From positions 9,325-73,324 of the forward strand of contig JAFLUY010000008.1 of assembly GCA_022508565.1 (NCBI GenBank): a stretch of 64,000 nt of DNA. Reading direction: 5' to 3'. The notes beneath the pieces were generated by a model that saw only the letters and a list, made by a program, of their open reading frames with translations, was not told the DNA's origin and ran no database searches. How positions within the stretch are numbered: position 1 is the stretch's first letter; each line of letters opens with the position of its first letter. The position numbers and the translations under genes were made by a program. Shown here one piece after another: positions 2,442-50,364 of this stretch. Source of the stretch: Erysipelotrichales bacterium. Its GTDB lineage: Bacteria; Bacillota_I; Bacilli_A; RF39; UBA660.

Positions 2442-2690
2442 ATGAAAACTTTAGCAGATTTTGTAAATGAAAAACAAAATGAGGTTGATGAAGAAATAGT
2501 AATCAATATAACAAACGAAATAACTGATATTATTGATGATATTGCTAAACGTCATTCACCTGAAACTATACAGCAAATAATTGAAGATGTTTTGGCGAGA
2601 TATATAACTGCTGATCCTGGTGTTTCTAATGATACATCTATTGCTGTAGGAGATGCAGTATTAAATATATATGATGAATATTTAAAATGA
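2442..2690 (+). CDS. small acidic protein with CTS-like N-terminus (MKTLADFVNE)
   Basis: 82-aa ORF. The N-terminal decapeptide fits M-K-[ST]-L-x-x-F-[IV]-x-E. Confidence 0.6.
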   Translation: MKTLADFVNEKQNEVDEEIVINITNEITDIIDDIAKRHSPETIQQIIEDVLARYITADPGVSNDTSIAVGDAVLNIYDEYLK

Positions 2691-3337
2691 AAACCTTAAT
2701 GGAATTTATTCATGAATCATTAGAACACCAGCAGTTCATTACTGAACATTTTGTAAATGTTTTCAAAAAAGAAGATATGAAGAAATATGGTGATGAAGTT
2801 TGGAAGATGCTTCAAGATGCATATAAATATTGCGGTGGTGTTGCTGGAGCAAAATCTATTGATGATATTATCGATGACACAGATATGTGGAAAATGGTTC
2901 GCCGCAATGGTAAATTAACAGCATTTAAAGCATATAAGCTAGTCAATGGCGGTCGAAAAGCTAATTGTGCTGCAACCGATAGAACAGATCAAGGCATTGC
3001 TGATATGAAGAAGATTTATCAAGAAGATGGACTTCTTAAAGATCGTAAAGCTTATGCAGAAGTTTCAGGTAAAGCTTTATCAACTTGTCTTAACCAAGGA
3101 AATATTCCCGTTCCTGCTATAGTTGCTAAAGAAATTCTTCAGAAAGATCTTACTCCATGTGAAGATGGCTGGTTCTATACTAGAAAACTTGGAGATGGAA
3201 ATATGCATCATAAGCTTCTTGTTGGCAATCCTCCCGGAGTAGATAAGCAAGAAGAACCTTCACCTGAACTTGTCAAGCAACTTAAAGATCTAGCAAGAAA
3301 ATATCATGAAGAAGATGAGAAAAATAAAAAGAAATAA
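2687..3337 (+). CDS. hypothetical protein with CTS-like N-terminus (MKTLMEFIHE)
   Basis: 216-aa ORF with an ATGA start/stop overlap with the upstream gene. The C-terminus is lysine-rich. Confidence 0.65.
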   Translation: MKTLMEFIHESLEHQQFITEHFVNVFKKEDMKKYGDEVWKMLQDAYKYCGGVAGAKSIDDIIDDTDMWKMVRRNGKLTAFKAYKLVNGGRKANCAATDRTDQGIADMKKIYQEDGLLKDRKAYAEVSGKALSTCLNQGNIPVPAIVAKEILQKDLTPCEDGWFYTRKLGDGNMHHKLLVGNPPGVDKQEEPSPELVKQLKDLARKYHEEDEKNKKK

Positions 3338-3352
3338 TTTTTATAATATATT

Positions 3353-3817
3353 ATGAAAAGTTTAGTTGAATATATAAAAGAATCAATGTCATGCCCGATT
3401 TGTGATTTTGTTAAAAAATACCAAAAGACAATTTATGCCAAACGCGATACTTGGGGCAGAGTTGTTTCTAAAAATGATTTTGATAATCTTTGGGAATTGA
3501 AAGACGATGGATCTTTCTGGAGAGAAGTTGGAGGCAAGAAAATAGATAAATCTGGAGCAAAACTTAATGGCCCATGGGTAAAATTCTATTTAGAAGATGA
3601 TGAAGATCCAACAATCGAAATCTATCTCGATTTAGAATTTGATGCCGAAGATTGGGATTCTAATGGCGTTCAAATTAGTTTTGTTGATGGTGATAAAAAC
3701 GGAACCGTTGGTCCTATCTTTGTAAAATCAAACGAAAAAGAATTATATGGATCTGAAATAGCATATGAAATTTCTAAAGATTATGCTCAAGAAATTTACG
3801 ACAATATTGTAAAATAA
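3353..3817 (+). CDS. hypothetical protein with CTS-like N-terminus (MKSLVEYIKE)
   Basis: 154-aa ORF. Confidence 0.65.
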   Translation: MKSLVEYIKESMSCPICDFVKKYQKTIYAKRDTWGRVVSKNDFDNLWELKDDGSFWREVGGKKIDKSGAKLNGPWVKFYLEDDEDPTIEIYLDLEFDAEDWDSNGVQISFVDGDKNGTVGPIFVKSNEKELYGSEIAYEISKDYAQEIYDNIVK

Positions 3818-3823
3818 ATTATT

Positions 3824-4213: not shown

Positions 4214-4228
4214 CTATAATATAATAAA

Positions 4229-4582
4229 ATGAAAAGTTTAATTGAATTTATTCGTGAGCATAATCTTAATGAATCTAAACGTACTGAAATACGTATAGAA
4301 GTTAATGATATAAAAGGCTCTGAAGATTTTTTAAGTAAATTGAAATCTTCTTTAGATTCAAAAGATATCTATAATGAAAAAATCGATAGTGGATTAAAAT
4401 TTGCTATCCAAGGAGACAATAAAGAAAAGTATCAAGATGCTTTAGATATTCTTAAAGGATGGGAAGAAGGTAAAGAAAAACTCGAAGGTCCTATTACTGA
4501 ACTTGAAGCCTGGATTACTGAGGAACCAGAAGAAAATGAAGAAGATTTAGGAGAAGATGAACCTGATGATGAAGATGAATAA
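4229..4582 (+). CDS. acidic protein with CTS-like N-terminus (MKSLIEFIRE)
   Basis: 117-aa ORF with a poly-acidic C-terminus (EEPEENEEDLGEDEPDDEDE). Confidence 0.65.
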   Translation: MKSLIEFIREHNLNESKRTEIRIEVNDIKGSEDFLSKLKSSLDSKDIYNEKIDSGLKFAIQGDNKEKYQDALDILKGWEEGKEKLEGPITELEAWITEEPEENEEDLGEDEPDDEDE

Positions 4583-4615
4583 TTTTTAATTTTATTATTT
4601 TATAATTCATGTGAT

Positions 4616-4652
4616 GGATAACTTAAAAAAATAAGTTGTCCATTTCTATTTT
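4616..4652 (+). terminator. rho-independent terminator (weak T-tract)
   Basis: Stem ggataactt (4616-4624) / aagttgtcc (4633-4641) with one G-U pair, followed by atttctatttt. Confidence 0.45.
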
Positions 4653-4670
4653 ATAAAAAATATAATAAAT

Positions 4671-5699
4671 ATGAATAATTCTTTTGGAAATATTTATAGG
4701 CTTACAACATTTGGAGAAAGTCATGGCCCTGCTATAGGAGGAATTATTGATGGGATTCCTTCTAATTTAGATATAAATATCGAAAAAATTCAATTAGCAT
4801 TAAATAAAAGAAAGCCAGGACAATCTTCACTATCAACTCCACGTAAAGAAAATGATATCGTAGAAATCCTTTCCGGTATTTACAAAAATAAAACATTAGG
4901 TTCCCCAATTGGATTTATCATTCGTAATCATGATATTAAGTCGAATGATTATGATGAAAACATATATCGTCCGTCTCATGGAGATTTTACTTATGAAGCA
5001 AAATATAAAATAAGAGATTATCGAGGAGGAGGTAGAGCGAGTGCCAGAGAAACCGCTTGTCGGATTGTTGCAGGAGAGATCGCAAAACAAATATTAAATC
5101 AAATAGCAAAAATAAATGTTTATACTTGTATTTCTCAAATCGGAAATATTAAAATAAATGAAAATTCTGATAATGAAATATTTAAAAAAGAAATAGAAGA
5201 CGAAATATTAAAGGTTAAAAAAACAGGAGATAGTATTGGAGGTAAAATTTCATGTATTATTGATTGTCCTGTTGGTCTTGGCGAACCAGTATATAATAAA
5301 TTACAAAGTGAATTATCTTCAGCAATGTTTTCTATTCCTGGAGTCAAAGGTTTTGAATATGGGTTAGGATTCGATTTTTGTAATAAAAAGGGATCTGAAG
5401 TAAATGATGAATTTTATTCAGATGGAATTAATATATTTACTAAATCAAATAATTCAGGAGGAATACAAGGAGGTATAAGTAATGGGCAACCGATATATTT
5501 TAATGTGGCATTTAAACCTACTCCTTCGATTTCTATAGAACAATCAACAATTGATAAAGATTTAAATAATATACATACTAAAATTAAAGGAAGACATGAT
5601 CCTTGTATCGTACCTAGAGCTCTTTATGTAGTAGAAGCAATGACCTATATAGTTATGCTCGACCAAATTATGATGAATCGATCAAAATCATTTTATTAA
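4671..5699 (+). CDS. aroC: chorismate synthase
   Basis: FGESHG, RPSHGD, GGGRASARETACR and GGISNG motifs. 342 aa is typical for AroC. Confidence 0.9.
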   Translation: MNNSFGNIYRLTTFGESHGPAIGGIIDGIPSNLDINIEKIQLALNKRKPGQSSLSTPRKENDIVEILSGIYKNKTLGSPIGFIIRNHDIKSNDYDENIYRPSHGDFTYEAKYKIRDYRGGGRASARETACRIVAGEIAKQILNQIAKINVYTCISQIGNIKINENSDNEIFKKEIEDEILKVKKTGDSIGGKISCIIDCPVGLGEPVYNKLQSELSSAMFSIPGVKGFEYGLGFDFCNKKGSEVNDEFYSDGINIFTKSNNSGGIQGGISNGQPIYFNVAFKPTPSISIEQSTIDKDLNNIHTKIKGRHDPCIVPRALYVVEAMTYIVMLDQIMMNRSKSFY

Positions 5700-5727
5700 A
5701 AAGAAATTAATTAAAATACAAAATAAT

Positions 5728-6309: not shown

Positions 6310-7581
6310 TTAATCTTCTAATAAAGAAAGCTCTTTTGCAATACCATTGAGCATTGCGATTTTTACAGGATCATTTTTATATTCTTCTGCAAGCATAGCA
6401 ATTTTCTCACGACGAGAAGCTATTTTTGCTTTTTTAGAAACTTCTAATTGCTCTTTAATAGATTCGTAAGAATTAGGATCTACTCTTTTTGCGTCTTCGT
6501 TAATTCGATTTTCATAGATCGAAGAAAGATTAAGATTAGTAACTTTCTTGATATTTGCTAAAGCTTCATTCATATATTCAAAATTAGTTGAAGAAGTTCC
6601 ACATTGAGCAGATTTATACACAGTAACATTTACATTATCTTTTGCTTCAATAATAGAAAGAACATCACCAGTAGAAGTTTCGAGAACTTTAGCAGTATCG
6701 ATTTCACAAATATTTTCCATAGCTTCGTAAACTTCACCAATAGAATTTACAGTATTAAGGAAAATAGTTTTTTCATTACCAATAAGAGTTCTAGCAAAAA
6801 CATCTGCATATTCTTTGAATCCTGCTACTGATTCGAAAGTTTGTTTGAAATTACCTGTTTCAAAAGTAATAAGATTTTCAGAAATAGTAAAATGCATGGC
6901 TTTACCATATATTCCATGATTATAAGTATATTCAAGATTTTCTTCTACTTTCTTGAAATTAGGAAGAAGTGAATTGATTCGATTGAATTTCATATCATCA
7001 CAAACTGCTTCTTCTACAACATCATTAGCAAATTTAAAGGTCTTACCTAAGATTGAGAAATAAGTATTTCCTTCATCAATATGTAAATAAGTTACAGGAT
7101 TAGTAAGGGAATAATTTGGAGCATAAGTTTCTTCTACAACATTCGTACGATAAACTTCTTTACAGATTGATCTGAATTCAGGAATATATTGAAGATTTTT
7201 AAGGGCTCCAGCTTTAATATATTGAACAACTTCATTTTCTTTCATTTCTAAAAGTTTTTCAACTTGTCCAACTCCCATCTTAGCAATATAATTATATTGT
7301 GCATTGTTAGAATTAATAGATTCACAAGCACTAGAAAGTTTCCAAGAAATACGATTTTCATTTACATACGTCAATACAGATTCTAAAATAGACATAATAC
7401 CTGTATCGAAAGTGAATTTATTCGCTTCTCTTATGAAACCATTTACTAAACTATAAGATACATCATTTCCAAAAACGTATGCTTTATAGTTCTTTAAAAA
7501 ATTCTTACCTGATTCTGTTACGGCTTCTTGAGAGTTTAATTTTTCACCGAAATTCAGGTTACTAATCAACTTTAGGTTCAT
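6310..7581 (-). CDS. hypothetical protein (possibly abundant; function unrecognised)
   Basis: 423-aa ORF with a helical, charged C-terminus. It is preceded by a 2.4-copy tandem promoter/hairpin-like repeat. Confidence 0.7.
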   Translation of the reverse strand: MNLKLISNLNFGEKLNSQEAVTESGKNFLKNYKAYVFGNDVSYSLVNGFIREANKFTFDTGIMSILESVLTYVNENRISWKLSSACESINSNNAQYNYIAKMGVGQVEKLLEMKENEVVQYIKAGALKNLQYIPEFRSICKEVYRTNVVEETYAPNYSLTNPVTYLHIDEGNTYFSILGKTFKFANDVVEEAVCDDMKFNRINSLLPNFKKVEENLEYTYNHGIYGKAMHFTISENLITFETGNFKQTFESVAGFKEYADVFARTLIGNEKTIFLNTVNSIGEVYEAMENICEIDTAKVLETSTGDVLSIIEAKDNVNVTVYKSAQCGTSSTNFEYMNEALANIKKVTNLNLSSIYENRINEDAKRVDPNSYESIKEQLEVSKKAKIASRREKIAMLAEEYKNDPVKIAMLNGIAKELSLLED

Positions 7582-7770: not shown

Positions 7771-8073
7771 TTATTCTTTATCTATTAATGCTTTAGCTTC
7801 TTCTGTAGCCATTCTAGCAAATTCTGTCCAATTATCAAAAATATCATCTTCTGTTATACCGTCAGTTTCATCACCGACAATTACACTCATAAGAAAATCT
7901 AAAAGTTCCGCATCTTCTCCTTTCTTTATTAAATCATTAAAGGCTTTATCTCTTTCAGCGTCATTATCAAAACCATCATTATAAATAATTTCTAATTGTA
8001 CAGGAATTGATTGTGCTAAACGACTTCCTAAATCATTTTTGAATTCTTTAATAAATGTTATTAAACTTTTCAT
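7771..8073 (-). CDS. small acidic protein with CTS-like N-terminus (MKSLITFIKE)
   Basis: 100-aa ORF. Confidence 0.6.
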   Translation of the reverse strand: MKSLITFIKEFKNDLGSRLAQSIPVQLEIIYNDGFDNDAERDKAFNDLIKKGEDAELLDFLMSVIVGDETDGITEDDIFDNWTEFARMATEEAKALIDKE

Positions 8074-8791: not shown

Positions 8792-9022
8792 TTATTTATT
8801 CTCTTCAATCCATTTACTGATTCCTTCTTTAAGATATTCATGATCTTGTTTAAAAGATTTCATATAAATCCAGTCAAGTAAATCGTATATAGATTTTGAG
8901 ACCACTTCACTATCATCAATGAATTTTAATTTATTAATAAACTTTTCGGCCATTTCTTCCCAAAAATCTTGACTAATCTCCTTATGTCGAGTTTCAGATA
9001 TAATTTGATTTAATGTTTTCAT
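8792..9022 (-). CDS. small protein with CTS-like N-terminus (MKTLNQIISE)
   Basis: 76-aa ORF. Confidence 0.55.
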   Translation of the reverse strand: MKTLNQIISETRHKEISQDFWEEMAEKFINKLKFIDDSEVVSKSIYDLLDWIYMKSFKQDHEYLKEGISKWIEENK

Positions 9023-9057: not shown

Positions 9058-9345
9058 TCATTGTCTCCAACCAATTTCCGTAGCTAAAGCTCCAAGAACA
9101 AGACGAGAAGTCAATAAACTACCAAATGAACCTTTAGGATCCACTCCAAGTATTTTACATAGAGTTTTCATAATAGCAGGACCAAAAGTTACACCTGTAA
9201 TACCTCCGAGAATAGCTGAAAACAATCCTTCATCTATAGGAATATTATTTTCTTTAGCTTCTTGTAATTTTTGGATCATATCATCATACATTTGATCTTC
9301 TGTGATGATATTGTCTTCATTTATATAATCTTTAATTGCTTTCAT
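9058..9345 (-). CDS. small membrane protein with CTS-like N-terminus (MKAIKDYINE)
   Basis: 95 aa with two glycine-rich hydrophobic segments (GLFSAILGGITGVTFGPAIM and FGSLLTSRLVLGALATEIGW). Confidence 0.55.
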   Translation of the reverse strand: MKAIKDYINEDNIITEDQMYDDMIQKLQEAKENNIPIDEGLFSAILGGITGVTFGPAIMKTLCKILGVDPKGSFGSLLTSRLVLGALATEIGWRQ

Positions 9346-9354: not shown

Positions 9355-11004
9355 TTAGAATTTTTTTCCACCCCTTCTACTTAAATTAGCCATCTGCTCG
9401 GATATCATAAATTTTACATCATCAACACTTAACTCATTTTCAGGATCTTCTCCTAATTGGAAGATTCTTGCACAAGTAGCAAAAGACCTAATGGAAATTT
9501 CCATATCTGCTCCTTTATCTGCTAATTCTGTGAGATATTCATAAGCCTGTATTTTTGATTTTGCTGATAACTTTCCAGGATCAATTGCAGGCATTATTTT
9601 TTTAATTCTATCTAATAGTTGTTGTGTTGTGAAATCCAACGATTGTGTAAATACGCGATTTCTTAAAGCTGTATCAAGTTGTCCAACTGAATAATTTGTA
9701 ATGACAATTACTGAACCAGCATAAGACATGGTTTTCGGTACAGGAACTCCTTCATCATCTTTAAGATCTCCCGTAACTCTATATGATACTAAACGTCCTC
9801 CTTCATCATCTGTACTAGAATCTAATGCTCCTTTAAGAATATTGATGACGTCTTCCGGTGCACGCGGACCAACTAAAGCATCAGCATCATCTATGACTAT
9901 CATTTCTCCTTTATCTTTATGAGTATACATAGATAAATATAATTGTCTAGGTGTACATTTACCTTTAATTATATCAAGATTTTGTCCATTAATATATCCT
10001 TTAGATTTCAATTGAGTCAATACTGTATATGTCTTACCAATTCCAGGAGCTCCGCACAATATTACACCGGGCTGCAGACCTTTAACAACAGAATTTACAT
10101 AAGCATACATATGTTTAAAAGCTGTTTCTGGATCCTGTGTTTCTTTTTTAAATTCTTTAGATATTTTTTCTAAAGACTCATCTTCATTACTTATTTTAAC
10201 ATTTTTCTTAATGGATATGTTTAAATCTTCTAAAGAAGTTGCTCCACCTTTAATAGCATTCAATATAGTTCTATATTCTTTATAAAATTTACTAGCAGCT
10301 TCACGATCTCCCGCATCATAAGCTTCACGATGTTTTCTATATACTTCTTTTTTACGATCTTCTAATTCTCCTTCAAAAATAAAATTATATCCATTTCTGC
10401 TAGCAATAGTAGATTTTACTTCAAATATTTCCGAGATCCTATCATTCGAAATATTTTCATAGATTTTATAATTTAAAGCGCCGATATAAAAATTATGATA
10501 ATGCTCTTTCATAGTTTTATCATAAACTTTACCAGCTAATTCTTTAATTTTAGTTTCCGATAAAGAATAGTCTTTTGAATTTATTACATGATATATTACA
10601 GGAAGATAATATACGATACTAGCTCCCATAAAATTTAAATCTAAATTTCCTTTAACTGGATTATCTTTATCTTCTGACCAAAGTAATTTTTCTAAATTTG
10701 CTTCTGAATAAAAAGTTACCGAATACGGATCAAAAGTTTTAGAATTATTTTTAAAGTTGATAGAAAGAGCTCTAACATCTTTTGTTCCAAAATATATAAA
10801 ATATGATTGACATTCGTCTCCATTTACATTTAAACTATATGGAGCATTGTCTATATATACTTTATCATTTATATTCTTTCTTAAAAGTTTTAAAATTAGA
10901 TCCATTACTTTTTTAAAATCTTCATTTTTAAAACCCTCAAAAAGTCTTTTCGTATTTTCGTAGTTTTCGTTCTTTTTATTTATAAAATCTAAAAAACTAG
11001 CCAT
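9355..11004 (-). CDS. AAA+ ATPase with a large N-terminal domain of unknown function
   Basis: Walker A CGAPGIGKTY, Walker B MIVIDDAD and a sensor-like VIVITN. The N-terminus MASFLDFINK is a degenerate CTS-like sequence. Confidence 0.75.
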   Translation of the reverse strand: MASFLDFINKKNENYENTKRLFEGFKNEDFKKVMDLILKLLRKNINDKVYIDNAPYSLNVNGDECQSYFIYFGTKDVRALSINFKNNSKTFDPYSVTFYSEANLEKLLWSEDKDNPVKGNLDLNFMGASIVYYLPVIYHVINSKDYSLSETKIKELAGKVYDKTMKEHYHNFYIGALNYKIYENISNDRISEIFEVKSTIASRNGYNFIFEGELEDRKKEVYRKHREAYDAGDREAASKFYKEYRTILNAIKGGATSLEDLNISIKKNVKISNEDESLEKISKEFKKETQDPETAFKHMYAYVNSVVKGLQPGVILCGAPGIGKTYTVLTQLKSKGYINGQNLDIIKGKCTPRQLYLSMYTHKDKGEMIVIDDADALVGPRAPEDVINILKGALDSSTDDEGGRLVSYRVTGDLKDDEGVPVPKTMSYAGSVIVITNYSVGQLDTALRNRVFTQSLDFTTQQLLDRIKKIMPAIDPGKLSAKSKIQAYEYLTELADKGADMEISIRSFATCARIFQLGEDPENELSVDDVKFMISEQMANLSRRGGKKF

Positions 11005-13127: not shown

Positions 13128-13517
13128 TTATATTCCTGTAATTTCATAATCTCCTGAAGAAATATATTCGCCAGTATTATCTAAAATATGATATTGTCCA
13201 CCTGCTGCTTTTAATAAAGTTGTATCTATTCTAAAGATCACATAAACTTCATTTCTAGCAAATTCAGAAATTTGATTTCCTTCTATTGACAATCTAAAAG
13301 ATTCAATCTTATTCATATAGTCTGCTAGATTTATTCCTACATTTTGTATCAATCCCTGCTTCATATAGATTTTTTGTAAATCATATGCACGATAAAATAT
13401 AGGTTTATATATAACCCTAGGACTTGATTTAGTATTTACTAAAGAATTGTCATTAGTGATCTTTTTTTCAACTATACAATTTATCTTATCAATATTATAA
13501 TATATTCCTTTTAACAT
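13128..13517 (-). CDS. hypothetical protein (baseplate-module neighbour)
   Basis: 129-aa ORF with a 3-nt gap to the gp25-like gene. Confidence 0.55.
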   Translation of the reverse strand: MLKGIYYNIDKINCIVEKKITNDNSLVNTKSSPRVIYKPIFYRAYDLQKIYMKQGLIQNVGINLADYMNKIESFRLSIEGNQISEFARNEVYVIFRIDTTLLKAAGGQYHILDNTGEYISSGDYEITGI

Positions 13518-13558
13518 TTAGATTACTTTTTTAAATCTGTTTCTTTAATTAAAAATTA

Positions 13559-16500: not shown

Positions 16501-17120
16501 TCGTTATAAGAAACCTTTTATTTCCTTCTGGTTTATTAGAAATCCATTTTTTATTTTTATAATTTCCTGTAGAAAATACAATATTATTGTCTTCTAAATT
16601 ATCTCCTTCAAATAAGATTTCTTTAATAGTATATCTTGTTTTAGCAGAAATTGTAATAGAGTTATCTTTATCAAAATAAAGTCCCCAACCATTATCTACA
16701 TCATCCTCTTCATAATATAATTTAGGATTATTGTCAGATTCATTAGATTCTCCTATTATAGTGATTAAAGAATTCTTTATAGGATTATCTGTTAAAATTA
16801 TCTCATTTGTATTATTTGTTTCAATTCCAAAATCTTCTAAATTATTAAAATCTATCTTTAAATTTGTTTCAATATATCTTTCATTAGAATTAAAATAATC
16901 TATATCATTTACTGTATATTTTATTATGTAATCATTATATATAAGTTTTAAAAATTTCTGAATCTTATTAGTATTTATAGAAATTATATAGTCATCTTCA
17001 AACAAATCTTGATCTCCTTGTAATATATCATCAGTCTCATAACCTTCTTTCAATATAGCTTTCCATTCTATATGAAATCCATAAGGACATTCTATCTCTT
17101 GTGAATCAAAATATAATTGG
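13559..17120 (-). repeat. protein-level tandem array of ~85-aa beta-rich modules (Listeria-Bacteroides/InlB B-repeat-like)
   Basis: The YGD.I.W....EGY signature recurs at least 14 times. The boundaries are approximate. Confidence 0.6.
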
Positions 17121-19643: not shown

Positions 19644-20726
19644 ATGACAGATCAGGAACTAATAAAAAATATTCAAAAACATAAGAAAATACTTTGGGAA
19701 AAACATTTAACAAAAGAAGAATTAATCTATTTAGAAAATAGATTTGAAAAATTTAACTCATATGCAGAGTCTTATTATAGAATATTATATAAAATAGAAG
19801 AAATGCCAAAATGTCCAGTATGTAAAAAAACATTAAAATTTATTTCATTAGGCAGAGGCTATGTAAATTTCTGTTCTCATAAATGCGCAGCAAAACATAA
19901 TCAAGAGCATTATAGAGAAATTTGTTTAAAAAGATATGGAATTGATCATCCATTTAAAAGTAAAGAACTACAAGAAAAAATTCATTCGAAAGAAATGTCT
20001 GAATATCATAAAAAGAAGTCATTGGAAAAATGGGGTACTGAACATCCGATGCAATCTGAAAAATATAAAAAATATTTTAAAAAATGTATTGAGAAAAAAT
20101 ACGGAAATGGAGTAACTAATGTTTGGCAGGCTGAAGAAGTTAAAAAGAAATTAAAAAATACATGGTTAGAAAAATATGGGACATCCGTCCCTAGTAAATC
20201 AGAAGAAATAAAAGAAAAAATTAAACAAACAAATTTAGAAAGATACGGAGTAAGTTGCACATTGCAAATTCCTGAAATTAAAAGTCATACTAATACTCCA
20301 GAAGCTCAAAGAAAAATTCATGAATCTAAGAAAAGGAATGGTAGCTATGGATATTCTAAAAATGAGCTTGAAATTTTTAATAAATTAAAAGAAAAATTTC
20401 CAAAAATTATTTTTCAATATTTAGATATTAATAGATATCCATTTAAATGTGATTTTTATATTCCTGAATTAGATTTATTTATTGAATACCAAGGATATTG
20501 GACGCATGGACCTAAACCATATAATGATAATGATGAAGATTGCCTCAAATTTGTACAAAAATTAAATAATAAATATTTAGAAACTAATAAAAAATGTTAT
20601 TTAGATGCTGTTGAATCATATACTATAGGTGACGTAAATAAAAGAAAAGTAGCCCAAGAAAATAACTTGAACTACTTAGAATTTTTTAATATGAATGATT
20701 TTTATTATTGGTACAACAATCTTTAA
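19644..20726 (+). mobile_element. free-standing homing-endonuclease-like gene (Zn-finger + 5 x KYG repeats + Vsr/DUF559-like PD-(D/E)xK C-terminal domain)
   Basis: CPVCKK...FCSHKCA zinc-finger-like motif. Five tandem [KR][YW]G...QSxE...K repeats. The C-terminus SKNELEIFNKL...CDFYIPELDLFIEYQGYWTHG has a D...E-x-Q/K nuclease-like core. Its stop codon overlaps the stop of the convergent rimK-like gene. Confidence 0.45.
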
Positions 20727-22228
20727 AACATCTCTCCTTTAAGCATATCTTTTCTAGTAGGATTTATAATATATCCCATTTTAGACATCAAGTCACGATT
20801 TATAAGTACTGGAGTAGATTTCTTTCTGTTATCTACTAATGCAAATTCTGCATTTTTAAAACGTCTTGTACCAATTTTAATTTCATCAATCAATACAGTA
20901 TGGCGTTCTTCGCGTACTTGGCCAACCATTGGATTAGAAGATCCATGGCGTTTAAAAATATATTTTTCTCCATTAATTGTAGCCTCAATTTTATCTCCTT
21001 TTAATTCTACTTTATCACAACCAAGTGTACTTGATTTTGAGCCATTGCCGGTATCAAATTTAGCTTCTAAATCAAATTGTTTGTCTTCTATAAAGAATGT
21101 CATTTCTTCTCGGTATCCAATAGATTTAGGTTGCAATACTAATTCAGAAATATCATTAATCGCTTCTAAAAGAATTCCCATAAAATTTTCTCCGATGACT
21201 TCTGAAATACCATCTGTGCCAGGACTAGAATTCCATTCAAGCACTACATTGTCTCCTATTTCTGGATTTGAACCTTTTTTAAGAGGCATAATATCGACGG
21301 CACACCAAGGCATATTTGAAATTCTAGCAACTTTTAGTGCGATTTCTTCCTGTTCTTTTGTAAGTTCTACTTTTTCTGCGGAAGCTCCTAATGAAACATT
21401 TGATCTAAAATCTCCAGAAAGCTTCACCCTTTTCATACAAGCCAATATTTTTTGTTCGGTTCGATTAGTCAATACATGTACACGGATGTCTCCTCCATCT
21501 GCTTCTTCCTTCTTTTGCAAAAGTAATTCTAATTCCTCGTTGACTGCAAACATCGCTTGAAGCATCGCAAGAATGTTTTTATTGTTACACATAAATACTC
21601 CGGTACCTCCGTGTCCATCTAAAAGCTTTACAACATATTCTTGTTCTTTATTGTCTTCAGACCAATTATCATATATCATTTTTAATTTTTCTGATAAAGA
21701 TTCCATTCCTTTTTCAATATCGTCTTTTCCAAGAAGAGTAAATCTAGGTTGAGGAATTTCATATCGTTGCATCAATACAGCTGATTGATATTTGTTAGAA
21801 GCTCTTTTAGCAGATTGAATAGGATTAATCACAAATAATCCCCATTCTTGTAATTCTTTAATACATTCACAACACATTTCAGAATCTTGTGCTCCTAATC
21901 TAGCAATAACAATCGTATCTACATTAGATTCATCTTTAATCTTAATAGATTCTTTCTTATCCCAAATTTTAATCTCATTATTATTTGCTTCGTATGTAAC
22001 TTCTTCTGCCACAAATACTTTTAAAGCAACATGAGTATCTTTCAATATTTCTTTAAGATTTTCTAAAGTTTTATTTTTTTTGGGATCTCTTTCATTTGTA
22101 AAAAATAAGATTGTCGAAAAGAAATATTTATCATGAGAGTCTTTTGATCTATTTTTCATTTCTTGTTTTTCGAAAAGAACTTTAGACATCTCAGTTTGGT
22201 CTATTAAAAAATCACTAAAACGTTTCAT
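20723..22228 (-). CDS. rimK: RimK-type ATP-grasp (alpha-L-glutamate) ligase fused to a C-terminal RimB/PF05618-like retropepsin-type protease domain
   Basis: VVKLLDGHGGTGVF, GGDIRVHV, GDFRSNVSLGA and WNSSPG match E. coli RimK blocks (from memory). The C-terminal EAKFDTGNGSKSSTL...ALVDNRKKSTPVLINRDLM...IINP matches the AK-DTGA..SS...DR....L-GR pattern of the 'ATP-dependent zinc protease' domain. Confidence 0.75.
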   Translation of the reverse strand: MKRFSDFLIDQTEMSKVLFEKQEMKNRSKDSHDKYFFSTILFFTNERDPKKNKTLENLKEILKDTHVALKVFVAEEVTYEANNNEIKIWDKKESIKIKDESNVDTIVIARLGAQDSEMCCECIKELQEWGLFVINPIQSAKRASNKYQSAVLMQRYEIPQPRFTLLGKDDIEKGMESLSEKLKMIYDNWSEDNKEQEYVVKLLDGHGGTGVFMCNNKNILAMLQAMFAVNEELELLLQKKEEADGGDIRVHVLTNRTEQKILACMKRVKLSGDFRSNVSLGASAEKVELTKEQEEIALKVARISNMPWCAVDIMPLKKGSNPEIGDNVVLEWNSSPGTDGISEVIGENFMGILLEAINDISELVLQPKSIGYREEMTFFIEDKQFDLEAKFDTGNGSKSSTLGCDKVELKGDKIEATINGEKYIFKRHGSSNPMVGQVREERHTVLIDEIKIGTRRFKNAEFALVDNRKKSTPVLINRDLMSKMGYIINPTRKDMLKGEMF

Positions 22229-32921: not shown

Positions 32922-33096
32922 GCAATTTATATTAAATCAAGAAGAAATTGTTGCTGTTAAAGACGCTATAATTGAATATATCTTTAAACATCAATGGTTT
33001 GGGAATCCTGAAACAACTAACATTCAGGGTAATTTAGAAATTTTGGATAAATTAGACAAACGAATAGATGAATTTTTATGCGAAAATATGGATTAA
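32902..33096 (+). CDS. hypothetical protein
   Basis: 64-aa ORF that overlaps both neighbours. Confidence 0.45.
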   Translation: MKNRMSEQFILNQEEIVAVKDAIIEYIFKHQWFGNPETTNIQGNLEILDKLDKRIDEFLCENMD

Positions 33097-33800
33097 TTGG
33101 ATATCCTCTTAGACATTCATGGTCGAGAGGATATTTCACAAATAAATTTAAAGAAAATAATATTGATGCTTTCTATGATAATTTAGAAATTGAAAATTTA
33201 GAAGGAATAAAAGATTTATTAGTTTCAAATAATTATAAAGGTTTTAATGTGACAATTCCATATAAAGAAAAAATTTTGGGATATGTAGATGGAATAGATG
33301 ATAAAGTAAATACAATTAAAGCATGTAATTGTATAAAAATTATAGATGGAATCTTTATAGGTACTAATACAGACATTATTGGATTTAAAGAATCATATAA
33401 AGATATATTAAATCCAAATAAAAAGGCATTAATATTAGGTACCGGAGGAGCAAGCAAATCTGTTGCTTTTGTTTTAGACGAATTAGGAATTAAATATAAA
33501 TACGTCTCTCGTTCATATAAGGACAGGGCATTAGAGTATAAAGATTTAAATAAAGAAATCATTAACTCTCATAAAATAATTATTAATACGACTCCTTTAG
33601 GAACTTTTCCAAATATCAATCAGTTTCCGGATATTCCTTATGATTTCATAACACCTGAGCATGTTTGTATAGATCTGATTTATAATCCTGAGAAAACATT
33701 ATTTTTGCAAAAATGCGAAAAACAAGGAGCTACTATAAGAAATGGATATGATATGCTAATTAAGCAAGCTGAAGCTTCTTGGGATTTTTGGAATTCTTAA
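33078..33800 (+). CDS. aroE: shikimate 5-dehydrogenase
   Basis: YGLIGYPLRHSWS, GFNVTIPYKE, NTDIIGF and GTGGASKSV (Rossmann) motifs. 240 aa. Confidence 0.88.
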   Translation: MRKYGLIGYPLRHSWSRGYFTNKFKENNIDAFYDNLEIENLEGIKDLLVSNNYKGFNVTIPYKEKILGYVDGIDDKVNTIKACNCIKIIDGIFIGTNTDIIGFKESYKDILNPNKKALILGTGGASKSVAFVLDELGIKYKYVSRSYKDRALEYKDLNKEIINSHKIIINTTPLGTFPNINQFPDIPYDFITPEHVCIDLIYNPEKTLFLQKCEKQGATIRNGYDMLIKQAEASWDFWNS

Positions 33801-41662: not shown

Positions 41663-42571
41663 ATGAAATCTTTAGTACAATTTATTGAACATAGTTCAAA
41701 TTCTTTATCTTTAAATGAATGTATTAAACGGTCGATGTCGATAAATGAAGGAGGACATTCTGTTAAAGACGCAGGTCCTATACCAGGGGATATCGCAGGA
41801 AAAGTAGGTAAAGATATTCTTAAAGATATTAAAAATAAATTTGCTTATGATGGTATACTATTAGGTTCGACTGGTAAAAAAGGTAAAGATCAAATGTCAG
41901 GAGATATTGATGTCGCTATTCAAGCTCCATGGGAAGATTATGAAAAAATAAAAAAATATGTAGAATCATTAGATAAGTTTACTGATTTTGGTAATATAAA
42001 TAAACAACTCCATGTCATAAATTTCGGATACGAATGGGAAACCGATAAAGTTGTACAAATAGATATAATGTTTGTTGAAGATTTAGATTTTGCTGATTTT
42101 GTATATCATTCTCCTGACTTTACAAAAAACGAATCAAAATATAAAGGTATGTATGCTTCAGCATTATTTATGGCAGTAGCTTCGTGTATACCAGTAAATA
42201 ATATAAATAAAGAAAAAGATGGTGAATGGGAAGAATATTTCTTTAGTCAAGCCGAAGGTTTAAAAATTGTAACAAAAACAAATATTGGTAAAAATACTAA
42301 ATTAAAAAATCCTAAAAAAGTATCTTCAAAAACAATTTCCAAAAATATTAATGATATTGTCAAAACAATTTTAGGAAATAAAGCAACTAAAGAAGATTGT
42401 TATTCATTTGAAAAACTTACTGAATATCTATCATCTAATAACTTTAAATATAAAGATAAATTACCTGATATACTCGAAAAATTTTCTAACGATTGGCAAA
42501 TTAAAATGAAGACATCTTCTGAACTTATGGAAGAACTTAAAAAATATTTAGAAGAAAAATTTAATCTATGA
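41663..42571 (+). CDS. Pol-beta-superfamily nucleotidyltransferase-like protein, paralog 1, with CTS-like N-terminus (MKSLVQFIEH)
   Basis: LGSTGKKGKDQMSGDIDVAI fits the G[SG]-x(9-13)-D-x-D minimal NTase motif. 302 aa. Confidence 0.55.
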   Translation: MKSLVQFIEHSSNSLSLNECIKRSMSINEGGHSVKDAGPIPGDIAGKVGKDILKDIKNKFAYDGILLGSTGKKGKDQMSGDIDVAIQAPWEDYEKIKKYVESLDKFTDFGNINKQLHVINFGYEWETDKVVQIDIMFVEDLDFADFVYHSPDFTKNESKYKGMYASALFMAVASCIPVNNINKEKDGEWEEYFFSQAEGLKIVTKTNIGKNTKLKNPKKVSSKTISKNINDIVKTILGNKATKEDCYSFEKLTEYLSSNNFKYKDKLPDILEKFSNDWQIKMKTSSELMEELKKYLEEKFNL

Positions 42572-43494
42572 GATCTCTAATAGAATTTTGTAAAGGTTCA
42601 TCTTTATCAATAAAAGAATATATAAATGAACAATTAAATATATATGAAGGAGGTAATGCAGTTACCGCTAATCCGATTCCTGCATTTATAACTCCATTAA
42701 TATATCAAGATATAGAAGAATCAATAAAAAAATATAATAATAAAATTAAAATTGTTCCTTTAGGTTCTATCGGTAAGAAAAAAGATGATGATTTTAATGG
42801 TGATTTAGATGTCGCTATAGATATAACAGATAGAGATCAACTTGTTTCGATGTTAGAAGAGATCTGGCCCGATAATGAAATAAATAAGTTTGTTACTCCA
42901 TCGATAGTTTCGATGTCATATCCTTATAATAAAGAAGGTAAGTCTGGTAATGCTCAAGTTGATTTTATGATGACTAAAAATATCGATTGGGCAAAATTTA
43001 GATATTCATCACCTGACCTTAAAAATGGAGAATCTAAATATAAAGCTGCTGCAAAAGTATTATTAATGAGATGTATAATTGCGGCTATACCTGTTAAAGA
43101 TGCTAAAGATGAATATTTTGAAGATGGAACAACAGTTAAAAAGAAATGGAAATATACATTCAATACCGAAGGAGTCTTTAAACAATTATTAGATTATACT
43201 GGTAAAAAGGGCCCATTAAAAAATCCAAAACGTCCTAAAGAATTCCAAGAATTAGTCACAAACGACCCAGAAAATGTTATGAAGTTTGCATTCGGAGATA
43301 AAGCCGATATTAAAGATTTCAATTCGGTAGAAGCATTATGGAAAGCGTTACATACAAAATGGCAATATAGTAAAGAAGCTTTAGGTAATGCCGAAAAATC
43401 TTTCTATGAAGATTATATATTTGATAAGAATCCTGAAGTAAAAATGGATCCTAAAGATTTTCCTTGTGAAATATATAAACCTGAAGAAATTTAA
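42568..43494 (+). CDS. Pol-beta-superfamily nucleotidyltransferase-like protein, paralog 2, with CTS-like N-terminus (MRSLIEFCKG)
   Basis: LGSIGKKKDDDFNGDLDVAID. It shares further blocks with paralog 1 (NEGG..V....IP, SPD..K.ESKYK, LKNPK). ATGA overlap with paralog 1. Confidence 0.55.
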   Translation: MRSLIEFCKGSSLSIKEYINEQLNIYEGGNAVTANPIPAFITPLIYQDIEESIKKYNNKIKIVPLGSIGKKKDDDFNGDLDVAIDITDRDQLVSMLEEIWPDNEINKFVTPSIVSMSYPYNKEGKSGNAQVDFMMTKNIDWAKFRYSSPDLKNGESKYKAAAKVLLMRCIIAAIPVKDAKDEYFEDGTTVKKKWKYTFNTEGVFKQLLDYTGKKGPLKNPKRPKEFQELVTNDPENVMKFAFGDKADIKDFNSVEALWKALHTKWQYSKEALGNAEKSFYEDYIFDKNPEVKMDPKDFPCEIYKPEEI

Positions 43495-46612: not shown

Positions 46613-46888
46613 ATGAAAAGTTTAGTTGAATTCATTACAGAATCAAGGATAAATCCTAAAGATGTTATTGAAGCAATTGTTGGTGCTTATCAACAATGGG
46701 AATCAGATCTTGAAGATGAACCTGCACAATGGTCAGATATAGAAGATATGTATACTGCAGATGAACCAAGCGACGATGTTATTAAAGATATATGTGTTAG
46801 TCTTGGAGTAAAGGAAGAAGAACTTAAAAAATTCTTCTCTACTCCTCAAGGTAAAACAGCATGGAAAAATGCACAAAAAGAATTCTAA
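46613..46888 (+). CDS. small acidic protein with CTS-like N-terminus (MKSLVEFITE)
   Basis: 91-aa ORF. Confidence 0.6.
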   Translation: MKSLVEFITESRINPKDVIEAIVGAYQQWESDLEDEPAQWSDIEDMYTADEPSDDVIKDICVSLGVKEEELKKFFSTPQGKTAWKNAQKEF

Positions 46889-47022: not shown

Positions 47023-48498
47023 ATGAAAGTGATCAAACGAGATGGTACTATCCAGGAATTTGACATCAAGAAACCTATTGAGGCTTTCAAGAAGCCTTTT
47101 ATAAATGGTTTGCAGAGAGAAGTTCCGGAAGGCTTACTTGAAAAATTTGAAATTGAACTCGAGAAGTTCATAAACAAACAAAAAGAAGAAGTTAATATTG
47201 AAGAAATTCAAGACTTCATTAGAGATTTCTTAATTAAGAAAAATCAATATGAAGCCGCTGAAAACTTTATTCTTTATCGTGAAAAACGAAATGAATATCG
47301 CGAAAAGAATACCAAGCTTCATAAGAATATTATTACAAAACTTTATGCAAAGAATATTGAAAATTCTAATGCAAATATGGATGAAGCCTCATTTGGCGGT
47401 AGAGTAGGTTCAGCAGCTTCAGAAGTTTGTAAAGATGAAGCATTAAAATTAATGTCAAGAAAGTTTAGAAAAAATCACGAAAATAATGAAATCTATGTTC
47501 ATGATTTAGATGCATTTTGCGACGGGCGCCATAACTGTTTGTCATATCCGATAGATAAATCCCTTAATGAAGGATTTTCTACTAGACAAACTGATGTTCG
47601 TGAAGCTAACTCTATATTGACTGCTTTGCAATTAGTTGCCGTACAATTTCAGTGTCAATCACTAGAGCAATTCGGCGGGGTTGCGGCAACACATATAGAT
47701 TGGTCAATGGTTCCATTTGTCAGAAAAAGCTTTATGAAACATTTTAAAGATGGGTTAGAATGGATTGGCTTATTCAATTGGAAAAAAGAAAAAATAGATA
47801 AATATATTAATGAAATTATTCCAGGAATAGAAAATAAGGATTCGGAAAATCCAATTCGTAGAACTTTAGCTATAGAAAAGAGTAAATATATTTTAAAGCA
47901 ACCCTGGTATAAATTATTTAAGAAATATAGATTACATAGAGCATATAAATATGCATTAAAGAAAACTAAAAGAGATACTTATCAAGGAGTAGAAGGACTT
48001 TACCATAATTTAAATACACTTCAATCAAGATCAGGATCGATGCTCCCGTTTAGTTCGATAAATTATGGTACATGTACTTTACCGGAAGGCCAAATGGTTA
48101 CTGATGCTATTCTTGATGTGACTATAAAAGGTCTTGGAGAACATGGTGTAACATCAATATTCCCTTGTGGAATTTTTCAATATAAAAAGGGCGTTAATGA
48201 TAAACCTAGAACACCTAATTATCATCTTTTTAGAAAAGCTCTTAAATCAACAGCTAAGAGGATTTATCCAAATTATGCAAACTGTGACTGGAGTAATCAG
48301 AAATCTTGGAAAGAATATGATTTGAAAATTCGTACAGAAGTTCTTAATGAATTGAATGAAGATGATACCGAAAAACTTATTAGTAAAGTCAAGCAAGATC
48401 CAGAATTTGCATTAGATCATTTTAGATTAATATATGATTATTATGGATTACATGTTATTGAAGAAGAACTCCCGATCGAGTTATTTTCAACCATGGGT
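47023..48498 (+). CDS. nrdD: anaerobic ribonucleoside-triphosphate reductase, exon 1 (ATP-cone + N-terminal catalytic part)
   Basis: ATP-cone start MKVIKRDGTIQEFDIKK. The class III RNR body follows. The exon ends ...ELFSTMG at a U (48498). Confidence 0.8.
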
Positions 48499-48768
48499 AA
48501 GCGAAATACTACAGCCCATGTAAAATTCCGTGAACCAAGCTTATTGGGTGTGGCTTAATAAAGCTGCTAACGGTTAGGTCCTAATAGGTGATGCTAAGGA
48601 TGAGACCGTGCTAAGATTTAAAGATTCATTCTTGAATAAAGTGTATCGACTATCCCTGATGAATGTAAGGGAGTAGGATTGGAGATAAGCACCAATTCCA
48701 AGCGCGGAACATTTATTTAATATAAATGAAGATATAGTCAGTACAAATAGTAATATTTGATTAATATG
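48499..48768 (+). ncRNA. group I self-splicing intron, ORF-less (about 270 nt)
   Basis: The 5' splice site follows U48498 and the intron ends with G48768. P1 pairs exon CAUGGGU (48492-48498) with internal guide GCCCAUG (48514-48520), placing a U-G wobble at the splice site. A long-range 7-bp helix joins 48526-48532 and 48703-48709. Hairpins occur at 48653-48672 and 48710-48728. The segment is visibly G+C-richer than its flanks. Splicing restores TMG|CRTANGG. Confidence 0.7.
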
Positions 48769-49827
48769 TGTAGAACAGCGAATGGTGGAGATATTTGGTT
48801 TAAAAATTCATTTGAAAAGAATTTAAAAGCTTGGATAAATGATGAGACTCTTTATGACGATATTATATCAGGTTGTCAAAAGGATGGTCGTGGAAATATT
48901 TGTCCAGTAACAATCATTCTTCCGACATTAGCAATGGAAGCTAAAGAATATATTGAGAAGAAAACCGAAAACCCAACTAAAGAAGAATATAAGAAAGCTT
49001 TTATTGATTTATTGACAAAGAAAATTCATGAAGCTAAAGATATGCTTATCGAAAGATTCGAACATATAGCTTCCCAATCTGCCGCATCGGCTAAATTTAT
49101 GTATGGAAATAAAACAATGTCAGGTTATGTTCCAGAAGAAGGAATACAATCAGCACTTCGTCATGGTACTATAGTTATCGGTAAAATCGGATTAGCGGAA
49201 GCATTAATTATTCTTATTGGAAAGGACCATTCAATTAAAGAAGGGATGGAATTTGCTAAAGAAATTGAAACTCTTTATAGAGATCTCTGTGCAAAATTTA
49301 AAGAAGAATACAAATTTAATTTTGGAAATTATAATACTCCAGCAGAATCACTTTGTCATACTTCATTAAAGAAATTTAGAGATAAATATGGTATCATTCC
49401 AAATGTTTCCGATAAAGAATATTTCACTAATTCTATTCATATTCCTGTACATAATAATAATATAAATATCTTTGAAAAAATCAATAAAGAAGCAGAACTT
49501 ACCGGATATTCTAGTGCTGGTTGCATAACTTATGTCGAGATGGATAGTTCAGCGGTAAATAATATTGATGCTATGGAAAAAATAGTTACATACGCAATGG
49601 ATAAAGATATCCCATATTTTGCTTTAAATTTCGATTTAAACAGATGTGCAAAATGTAATTATCAAGGAGGAGACATTAATGATGTTTGTCCTAAATGTGG
49701 AAGTCAGGATATTTTAGAACTCAAACGAGTAACAGGCTATTTGAGTACAACTAAAAAACATTTTAATCCTGGTAAAATTGATGAAGTAGATCATCGCTGT
49801 AAACATGAATCTAAAACAATTTTATAA
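48769..49827 (+). CDS. nrdD: anaerobic ribonucleoside-triphosphate reductase, exon 2 (C-terminal Zn-ribbon and glycyl-radical domain)
   Basis: CAKCNY...CPKCGS Zn ribbon and the glycyl radical motif KRVTGYLST. The ORF-track TTG start at 48757 is an artefact of the intron. Confidence 0.8.
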   Translation, partial: CRTANGGDIWFKNSFEKNLKAWINDETLYDDIISGCQKDGRGNICPVTIILPTLAMEAKEYIEKKTENPTKEEYKKAFIDLLTKKIHEAKDMLIERFEHIASQSAASAKFMYGNKTMSGYVPEEGIQSALRHGTIVIGKIGLAEALIILIGKDHSIKEGMEFAKEIETLYRDLCAKFKEEYKFNFGNYNTPAESLCHTSLKKFRDKYGIIPNVSDKEYFTNSIHIPVHNNNINIFEKINKEAELTGYSSAGCITYVEMDSSAVNNIDAMEKIVTYAMDKDIPYFALNFDLNRCAKCNYQGGDINDVCPKCGSQDILELKRVTGYLSTTKKHFNPGKIDEVDHRCKHESKTIL

Positions 49828-49863
49828 ATATTTATTTTTAATTACAAATATATTTTCAATAAT

Positions 49864-50364
49864 ATGAAGAGTTTAATCGATATAATAAATGAAGCTAAAT
49901 TTAAAACAATTTCCTCAATAAAAGCCGGAGATACAATTTATGCTATTGTGAGTGATTATGATAATAAATATTCTTATAATCGTTTAAAAAGAGATATGAA
50001 GCCATATAAATTTACTATTACTGAAGTAAGAAAAGCAAGAGATGGTAAAGGTTTATATGCGAAAGTAGAGCAAAATAAATTTAATATTGATAGAATTTAT
50101 TTTACTGATGATGAAATAAGAGATTTTGCATGTAATGGCACAGGTATAATGGATATGGAATATGATGAAGTTTATACGATGTTCTGTGCAAAATCAATAG
50201 ATGAATTACAAGAACTTATGGATAGTGAAGTTGGCGAAGAAATTGGTAATAAATTAAATAAAATATCTAAACTTGAAAATGATAAACAACAAATAGATAA
50301 GAAAATTGAACAAATAAAAGCAGAAATTGATGAACTTAAATCTTCAGCACAATTAGAAAAATAG
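49864..50364 (+). CDS. hypothetical protein with CTS-like N-terminus (MKSLIDIINE) and C-terminal coiled coil
   Basis: 166-aa ORF. Confidence 0.6.
   Translation: MKSLIDIINEAKFKTISSIKAGDTIYAIVSDYDNKYSYNRLKRDMKPYKFTITEVRKARDGKGLYAKVEQNKFNIDRIYFTDDEIRDFACNGTGIMDMEYDEVYTMFCAKSIDELQELMDSEVGEEIGNKLNKISKLENDKQQIDKKIEQIKAEIDELKSSAQLEK

Follow-up and report, generated by a model that had tools for sequence, protein, structure and literature searches.

The DNA considered here is a stretch of 64,000 nucleotides (positions 9,325 to 73,324 of contig JAFLUY010000008.1; the window, below, means this whole stretch), which belongs to a phage contig of 377,382 bp (ERZ27293317:k141_1147735). Ten genes of the window begin with variants of one decapeptide, such as MKSLVEFIAE, called the tag in this text. 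The tag exists, is confined to N-termini, where it is hugely enriched, and is a modular, portable leader on unrelated cargo proteins. Its residue pattern shows a specific similarity to that of the capsid targeting sequence (CTS) known from the internal proteins of phage T4. The reading favoured here, which we hold to be fairly likely, is that the tag would be a T4-type capsid-targeting and prohead-protease leader, carried by a large and fast-turning-over set of proteins that are packaged in the phage head and injected. The CTS mechanism is textbook knowledge for T4; what would be new is a greatly expanded member of this known system in a jumbo gut phage that probably infects Bacteroides.

The strict motif was defined as MK[STA][LI]xx[FIY][IV]xE starting at residue 1, and the gene set comprised the 78 non-overlapping open reading frames (ORFs) of the window. 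Ten of these 78 genes begin with the strict motif, compared with 0.0005 expected from amino-acid composition, which bears out the enrichment at ORF starts suggested by a preliminary description of this DNA. At 19,367 internal positions of the window's proteins, the motif was not found once (0.12 expected), and a six-frame translation of the window gave 10 matches, all of them ORF starts and none off-frame. A log-odds position matrix for positions 2–10, trained only on the tags of the window, scores the ten tags at 16–25 bits, whereas its maximum elsewhere is 12.4 (18,509 internal 10-mers), or 0.7 when the 297 internal Met positions are considered. It might be argued that such a motif results from chance, given the composition of a genome rich in A+T, or from wrongly called starts. 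The G+C content of the window is 26.9%, and a genome of 27% GC is enriched in codons for Lys, Ile, Phe, Asn, Glu, and Leu. This explanation is already refuted by the motif counts and the matrix scores, so that hardly any credence is left for it; as to the starts, an independent gene caller picked the same ones for nine of the ten tagged genes.

The coordinates and strands given earlier for 15 N-termini of tagged, near-match, or degenerate type were all exact, and each of them heads an ORF of 76–549 residues. Outside the window, 8.5 kb upstream, there is an eleventh perfect tag, MKSLSKYIYE (L003:1479-1964). Across the 11 tags, Lys2, an F, Y, or I at position 7, an I or V at position 8, and Glu10 are invariant (11/11 each), and Leu4 is present in 10/11; position 3 is S, T, or A, and positions 5, 6, and 9 are variable. 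The [IV]-x-E at residues 8–10, claimed previously for all ten tags of the window, is thus invariant in the eleventh as well. A signal peptide was also considered and rejected, the tag being charged and without a hydrophobic core. The tagged genes, followed by the near-match and degenerate ones, are listed below with coordinates, strand, N-terminus, length, and matrix score.

2442..2690, plus strand: MKTLADFVNE, 82 residues, 21.0 bits; acidic cargo with a mature isoelectric point (pI) of 4.1
2687..3337, plus strand: MKTLMEFIHE, 216 residues, 25.1 bits; predicted GNAT-fold cargo from about residue 20
3353..3817, plus strand: MKSLVEYIKE, 154 residues, 23.5 bits; without Pfam or PHROG match
4229..4582, plus strand: MKSLIEFIRE, 117 residues, 24.2 bits
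7771..8073, minus strand: MKSLITFIKE, 100 residues, 22.1 bits; in a variable locus within the baseplate-gene strand block
8792..9022, minus strand: MKTLNQIISE, 76 residues, 18.2 bits; in the variable locus shared with 7771..8073
9058..9345, minus strand: MKAIKDYINE, 95 residues, 16.0 bits; with an IMG/VR ortholog of 47% identity
33856..34239, plus strand: MKSLVEFIAE, 127 residues, 25.0 bits; 7/10 residues identical to T4 MKTYQEFIAE
46613..46888, plus strand: MKSLVEFITE, 91 residues, 24.6 bits
49864..50364, plus strand: MKSLIDIINE, 166 residues, 21.4 bits
41663..42571, plus strand: near-match MKSLVQFIEH, 302 residues, 14.5 bits (above threshold); weak NTP_transf_2 match
42568..43494, plus strand: near-match MRSLIEFCKG, 308 residues, under the matrix threshold
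20723..22228, minus strand: degenerate MKRFSDFLID, 501 residues, RimK-like ATP-grasp protein

The protein encoded by 41663..42571, with His at position 10, could possibly be targeted but uncleaved. The membership of the 42568..43494 protein among the tagged proteins is doubtful because of its score below the threshold. The RimK-like protein is a doubtful member, too; its orthologs in relatives begin with MKTITEFLKE, which is above the threshold, or with MKSITEFLKN.

Likeness to the T4 capsid targeting sequence

In the T4 record (AF158101), internal proteins II and III (IPII and IPIII) start with MKTYQEFIAE, the sequence given in the preliminary description; IPI starts with MKTFKEFTST. When all ORFs that begin with ATG and have 30 or more residues in 164 kb of T4, 1,914 in number, were scored with the window-trained matrix, the top three were gp61.1 (MKTFKEFIKE; 15.3), IPIII (13.1), and IPII (13.1), and the next score, 9.0, was that of an unannotated ORF. 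The protein with the highest tag score in T4, gp61.1, is a hypothetical protein of 54 residues (AF158101 18966-19130; L137:13966-14130, minus strand) and a candidate for a head protein whose CTS has so far gone unrecognised.

The CTS of T4 internal proteins has been reviewed (PMC9026906, PMC3012670). The first 10 residues of IPIII are enough for encapsidation; residues 4 and 7 of the CTS matter for targeting and residues 8 and 10 for processing, and Asp at position 10 stops cleavage and leaves targeting intact (PMC9026906). The positions conserved in the tag (L4, F/Y/I7, I/V8, and E10) are the same as those functionally mapped in T4. In T4, the CTS of IPII and IPIII is reportedly cleaved by the prohead protease gp21 (Mullaney & Black 1996). 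The cleavage motif of this protease, (L/I)-x-E, is present at the sequence level as [I/V]-x-E at residues 8–10 in 11/11 tags. The cross-detection of T4 proteins, the agreement with mapped positions, the modularity of the tag, and the presence of T4-type morphogenesis genes are all as predicted by the capsid-targeting reading, put forward already in the preliminary description, and they argue for it.

The two leaders are alike in many respects. Both comprise 10 residues counted from Met1, of which residue 4 is hydrophobic, residue 7 is aromatic, and residues 8–10 are [I/V/L]-x-E, and the consensus common to both is M-K-(S/T)-x-x-E-F-I-x-E. Both are found on small, mutually unrelated proteins encoded in variable loci, in genomes that also contain gp6-, gp13-, and gp32-type genes. 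There are also differences. Position 4 is Tyr in T4 and Leu here. The whole T4 genome contains about 3–4 tagged genes, whereas at least 11 were counted here in 84 kb, in line with the larger repertoire proposed in the preliminary description. The structural proteins are similar to those of T4 at the profile level only, and the tag is known here from sequence. The present phage, with a genome of 377 kb, probably infects a gut bacterium of the Bacteroidota. Tandem tagged arrays and an extended leader (EKLHxSK), present in relatives of the phage, are further departures from T4.

N-terminal sequences on proteins of the phage head are known from other phages as well. The phages phiKZ, 201phi2-1, and SPN3US, jumbo myoviruses as well, have an S77-type protease that cuts after Glu; several of the proteins inside their heads are made with propeptides and enter the host by ejection (PMC5694885). 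However, these propeptides mostly exceed 100 residues, are cut at (A/S/G)-x-E, and have no common decapeptide (PMC5694885); the tag, with its 10 residues and I/V at P3, is not a long propeptide of the phiKZ/SPN3US type. The anti-restriction protein DarB of phage P1 has an N-terminal signal, its first 30 residues, that suffices for loading into a myovirus head, but this signal is longer, it serves one very large protein, and the loading is stepwise and Dar-dependent (PMC9024508); a likeness in sequence to the tag would not be expected.

Unrelated cargo and tagged genes in relatives

The mature sequences of the ten cargoes gave no pairwise BLASTP match below E = 0.01, which agrees with the earlier claim that the sequences downstream of the tag are unrelated; the near-match ORFs at 41663 and 42568, paralogs of 31% identity, are the sole related pair. 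Searches of Pfam and PHROG with the ten tagged proteins gave no usable family. A paralogous family with a common N-terminal domain was considered and rejected, as the bodies are unrelated. The tagged proteins are 76–216 residues long, and their median pI is 4.6, compared with 5.4 for other small proteins of the window (p = 0.01). For the 166-residue cargo (49864..50364), a single homolog was detectable among 1.84 billion representatives; it is 40% identical and starts with MKSLINYINE. Being small, mostly acidic, and fast-evolving, the cargoes are plausibly anti-defence or host-takeover effectors.

The 216-residue cargo (2687..3337) has 28 homologs, most of them with tag variants. One homolog (P0028) is untagged and begins right at the domain, and in several others (P0025-P0027) a UPF0227 hydrolase domain replaces the tag; P0026 is located in a phage of 36% GC in which 0/22 genes are tagged. 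E10 is missing from some orthologs (P0005 and P0010). In the AlphaFold2 model of this cargo, built on the alignment of its homologs (predicted local distance difference test score, pLDDT, 82), the tag forms a separate helix of lower confidence, residues 4–13, which precedes a compact core. The top Foldseek matches of the core in the Protein Data Bank are all GNAT acetyltransferases (E about 1e-3, probability 1.0, TM 0.35–0.55), and with moderate confidence the modelled core can be assigned to the GNAT fold. The modularity of the tag follows from the unrelated bodies, from the existence of untagged and domain-swapped homologs, and from the separate position of the tag helix in the model.

Tags recur, on different cargo, in relatives of the phage. 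In a relative of 484 kb (L138), 10/31 genes are tagged, and a tandem array of about 13 genes (L138:9780-17505; ERZ28613754 scaffold_1), mostly translationally coupled, has MKxLxQ[FY]IxE at nearly every start; the bodies in this array, for the most part unrelated to each other, comprise among others DUF285 repeats and a KTI12/AAA_33 kinase. Two further relatives have 5/21 and 4/17 tagged genes, and the L145 ortholog of the 2442..2690 ORF retains MRSLNDFVNE. A related phage contig from the same sample (L144; ERZ27293317:k141_467862; 58.9 kb, 26.7% GC) has its own tagged cluster and a copy of the GNAT-like cargo with 74% identity, which means that related lineages co-occur. Three tagged genes of the window are located in a variable locus between two conserved genes, one for an AAA+ ATPase (9355-11004) and one for a 423-residue protein (6310-7581). 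In IMG/VR relatives with a gp6 of 47% identity, only one of the three (9058-9345) has an ortholog, and a different tagged gene is present at this locus; in these relatives, a tagged gene of 177–180 residues adjoins the conserved AAA+ gene. Such a locus is reminiscent of T-even phages, in which the loci for internal proteins are variable.

Tag-like N-termini were also found in other viral contigs, namely MKRLSDFINE (L089:10883), MKSLKDFINE (L108, minus strand), and MKTLKDFIAE (L021/L011). Their cargo consists of a 2H/Acb1-like phosphoesterase (weak match), nucleoside diphosphate kinase, and DUF6321 proteins, and these tag-like proteins are candidate packaged enzymes of other phage lineages. A 12-column hidden Markov model of the tag scores 19–23 bits only, which at database scale corresponds to E >10.

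Weighing the capsid-targeting reading

If the tag is a T4-type CTS, the following sequence of events can be proposed. During prohead assembly, the amphipathic leader, with L4, F7, and I8 on one face, would dock the cargo on the scaffolding core or on the protease in the nascent head. A protease of the gp21 family (Peptidase_S77) would then cut after Glu10 at [I/V]-x-E, freeing the mature protein inside the capsid. At the next infection, the cargo would exit the capsid with the DNA and act in the Bacteroides/Phocaeicola host before phage gene expression. We infer core binding, cleavage, packaging, injection, and cargo roles in this scheme, and the host would probably receive from the phage a large set of proteins that can be predicted from sequence.

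Several observations weigh against this proposal. Head genes were searched for in the window, 10 kb of one flank, and 4.6 kb of the other, and in this part of the genome (84/377 kb) none was found for a prohead protease, a scaffold, or a major capsid protein. A tblastn search of the same sequences with T4 gp19-24, gp6, gp13, and others gave no match because the proteins are too diverged; the distance of the phage's structural proteins from T4 is such that it takes profile methods to detect them. In the paper on Jug phages, the group to which this phage is assigned below, portal and protease are called "fragmented and/or highly divergent", and "CLP_protease" is listed among the Pfam domains often met with (PMC12880540); an assignment of the protease to the S77 type is for these reasons provisional. 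Leaders in the 484-kb relative often extend beyond E10 as EKLH[PI]SK[FY]KK, which is not predicted by a leader cut at E10. Most cargoes are acidic, whereas T4 IPII and IPIII are basic. In IMG/VR, an exact-codon tag pattern gave 0 matches, and a wider pattern was found on at least 120 contigs; about 85/120 matches are members of a GroES-like co-chaperonin family (phrog_13932; 201–208 residues; marine viral contigs of ~32% GC, L007-L126) that starts with MKSL[YF]DFI[VI]EPxG. In this family, the pattern is part of the fold and mimics the tag for unrelated structural reasons, so the raw count is no evidence for the spread of the CTS and no quantitative conclusion is drawn from it. Finally, the Ser3 codon is AGT in 7/7 tags (genome usage 16%) and the Leu4 codon is TTA in 10/10 (genome usage 54%). 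This bias at codons 3 and 4 points to a start-proximal nucleotide preference, or to shared descent or to a 5' end that spread recently within the genome.

The codon bias bears on the alternative named in the preliminary description, in which the conserved element is an mRNA-level 5' coding sequence that boosts initiation in a host without Shine-Dalgarno sites and the peptide is incidental. In agreement with this idea, usage of AGT and TTA at these codons is far above that of the genome, a Shine-Dalgarno core is present in just 2/78 genes, the 20 nt before starts are 88% A+T, and Lys (AAA) is codon 2 in 30/78 genes. However, after codon 4 the codons of the window tags differ while the residue class stays: TTT, TTC, TAT, TAC, ATT, or ATA at position 7, ATT, ATA, or GTA at position 8, and GAA or GAG at position 10. 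Four orthologs of the 216-residue cargo, 61–89% identical overall, begin with MKTLMEFIHE, MKPLSKFIAE, MKSLTKFIKE, and MKHLNQFIKE. Their codon 3 is ACC, CCA, TCT, or CAT, their codon 7 is TTT or TTC, and their codon 8 is ATT or ATA, yet K2, L4, F7, I8, and E10 are retained in all four. Across orthologs, synonymous codons change and positions 3, 5, 6, and 9 vary freely, a comparison that is qualitative and covers two ortholog groups; upstream of the tagged genes, no conservation of DNA was found. Since orthologs keep the residue pattern while codons and variable positions change, the data argue for selection acting on the tag peptide.

A generic translation-start element would also be expected more widely. 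In the same genome, 67/78 genes lack the motif. As a control, 141.5 kb of Tenacibaculum phage PTm1 was used (GC 29%), a jumbo phage whose host, also one of the Bacteroidota, should likewise be without Shine-Dalgarno sites, and 0/189 of its ORFs scored above the tag-matrix threshold, which argues against such an element. In the related phage MA9V-1, 0/13 ORFs were tagged in the 15 kb scanned. T4, moreover, uses the same peptide as a protein-level signal. The ortholog codon changes and the PTm1 result together disfavour the mRNA-level explanation, and we regard it as very improbable.

As for the protease on which the capsid-targeting reading depends, the group 2 jumbo phages have a prohead protease (PMC7824862), and the Jug paper lists both portal and prohead protease (PMC12880540). 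In MA9V-1, genes for gp2, Portal_T4, Peptidase_S77, and Gp23 are consecutive, and Peptidase_S77 is the N-terminal domain of a 1,347-residue protein, with 25.9 bits, slightly under the cut-off. Queries with the protease and portal of MA9V-1 against a set of 5.8 billion proteins did not reach the present contig. T4 gp21 searched against INPHARED gave 2,586 records, uninformative for this clade, the annotation of PTm1 in three regions proved too sparse, and the neighbourhoods of four cargo homologs (P0020, P0003, P0001, and P0026) contained no head genes.

The expression of the tagged genes can be considered in the same context. Three of them belong to a minus-strand block with baseplate genes. 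A T4-late-like TATAA[AT][AT] is present within 45 nt upstream of 8/10 tagged genes, compared with 21/68 untagged ones (p = 0.004 in a test that was post hoc and made in an AT-rich genome); this is suggestive of late-type promoters at tagged genes. The sequence TATAAATA is located directly upstream of the tagged ORF 7771..8073 (minus strand). A second promoter-like motif, TTTCTATTTT, is found 30–45 nt upstream of many untagged genes, often after a hairpin (for example at window positions 404, 4671, 22575, 34334, 36809, and 38422), and the two motifs look like two promoter classes.

The leader could also be a recognition tag for a purpose other than capsid loading, for example a degron or docking site for an AAA+ protease or chaperone, of phage or host, by which the turnover of these small proteins would be timed, or an adaptor helix for baseplate or tail. 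Between gp6 and the tagged genes of the minus-strand block, there is an AAA+ ATPase gene (9355-11004, minus strand; phrog_1250, clamp-loader-like), whose product itself begins with the tag-like MASFLDFINK, or MSFLDFVNKK in relatives, without K2 and E10. This neighbourhood, the abundance of CLP_protease domains in Jug phages, the conservation beyond E10 in one relative, and the finding of no head genes near any tagged gene are all in favour of such a role. On the other hand, it does not predict the likeness to the T4 CTS, that is, the invariant [I/V]-x-E at residues 8–10 and the cross-detection of IPII and IPIII, and the diversity and rapid turnover of the cargo suit injected effectors better than structural parts. 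Taken together, we find a role unconnected with capsid loading unlikely.

Another explanation accepts head targeting like that of T4 but takes it as convergent, or as working without cleavage or with a different protease, so that the tag would not be homologous to the T4 CTS. The extreme distance of this phage from T4 makes a near-identical 10-mer surprising, and convergence on a generic amphipathic N-terminal helix is possible. BLAST does not connect the structural genes with those of T4, the closest cultured relatives, PTm1 and MA9V-1, are untagged, so that the tag is patchy in the clade, and some orthologs (P0005 and P0010) are without E10. Yet 7–8 of 10 residues, counted alike from Met1, are identical to the T4 tag, none of the 11 tags of the genome departs from E10, and the occurrence of tag-like N-termini on cargo of various kinds in further large viral contigs fits a broad and old distribution. 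Convergence therefore seems to us a shade less credible than a role outside capsid loading.

If the tag and the T4 CTS are indeed homologous, a further step can be proposed, although we regard it as doubtful: the CTS might be an ancient and near-universal "zip code" of myoviruses with a gp21/S77 protease, expanded by Jug phages, and its reader would be this conserved protease or the core, and not the scaffold, which evolves fast. If true, this would explain the survival of the CTS from T4 to jumbo phages of Bacteroides despite capsid proteins that are undetectable by BLAST. The expansion in Jug phages would have led to tandem arrays, with perhaps about 50 tagged genes per genome at the density seen here, and the injected arsenal of uncultured gut phages (GNAT transferases, kinases, 2H/Acb1-like phosphoesterases) would become readable from sequence.

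In the main text of the Jug paper, there is no mention of an N-terminal tag or of internal proteins (PMC12880540), and full-text searches of the literature on capsid targeting brought up no such expansion of the tag. [quoted passage not shown] A rule that flags head-loaded, injected proteins would annotate a whole class of candidate first-strike effectors at once. If the capsid-targeting reading is correct, the T4 code reaches far past the T-even phages, which bears on what recognises the tag, and the loading of chosen cargo into Bacteroides phages by means of the tag, a practice established for T4, might become feasible. A tag that is convergent or differently used still defines a large, previously undescribed set of genes with a common leader.

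The phage and other features of the window

Jug phages have genomes of 360–402 kb, a GC content of about 27% in group Beta, and Bacteroides or Phocaeicola hosts; eIF-1a and NrdG are conserved in them, and genes are split by group I introns of ~200 nt, with many introns of ~206 nt reported (PMC12880540, Sci Adv 2026). The present phage, with its 377,382 bp, 27% GC, eIF-1a, NrdG, and an nrdD with a small group I intron lacking an ORF, matches this description, and it shows signs of a Bacteroidota host (2/78 Shine-Dalgarno cores, a BspA-type leucine-rich repeat (LRR) protein, OmpA). On the basis of these genome traits, it is very likely a Jug gut phage. The nearest GenBank relatives found by tblastn with the gp6-like protein are jumbo phages, mostly of Bacteroidota hosts, and uncultured huge phages: Tenacibaculum phages pT24, PTm1, and PTm5 (29%), the LR7565xx huge phages, Sphingomonas phage PAU, Prevotella Lak phages, and Chryseobacterium phage MA9V. 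In INPHARED, a megablast search with 25 kb and a tblastn search with a 1,657-residue protein of the window gave no match.

Among the T4-type genes, a gp6-type baseplate wedge (phrog_219) and a gp32-type single-stranded DNA-binding protein (phrog_224) are encoded in the window, and Phage_T4_gp13 was found 4 kb past its end. The auxiliary genes encode IF-1/eIF-1a, NrdD/NrdG, DnaJ, OmpA, RimK, and BspA-LRR. The nrdD gene (47023-49827) is split into two ORFs by an intron at about 48473-48760, a spacer without an ORF, which matches the group I intron model RF00028 end-to-end with 30.8 bits (gathering score 50; E = 4e-6 in a 501-nt search). The nrdD gene of T4 likewise carries a group I intron.

Four genes of the shikimate/chorismate pathway are dispersed in the window, encoding chorismate synthase (4671-5699), chorismate mutase (26922-27206), shikimate dehydrogenase (33078-33800), and DAHP synthase (52700-53488), an unusual auxiliary metabolic set; the words "shikimate" and "chorismate" are absent from the main text of the Jug paper (PMC12880540). 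The BspA-type LRR gene (58661-64000 onward; L005:4432-9978) crosses the end of the window and encodes 1,848 residues in full length. The gene after it codes for a protein of 1,213 residues (54997-58638); the two are located just downstream of the gp13-like gene and a possible gp14 gene, and both are probably fibre or adhesin genes.

In the baseplate block, the 1,657-residue protein and an adjacent ORF of 129 residues (13128-18532) match one IMG/VR protein of 603 residues (L127:7833-9644), the residues 1–476 of which correspond to the former and 485–602 to the latter; this comparison indicates gene expansion or splitting at the locus. Upstream of the window, at a distance of 3–5 kb (L003:5235-6824), there is a run of ORFs of 53–102 residues that all start with MKT (MKTSSNLLYY, MKTSSIIYSI, MKTNIKNFLE, MKTKKTQK, and MKTIKIDF), and these may represent a different small-protein family or leader.

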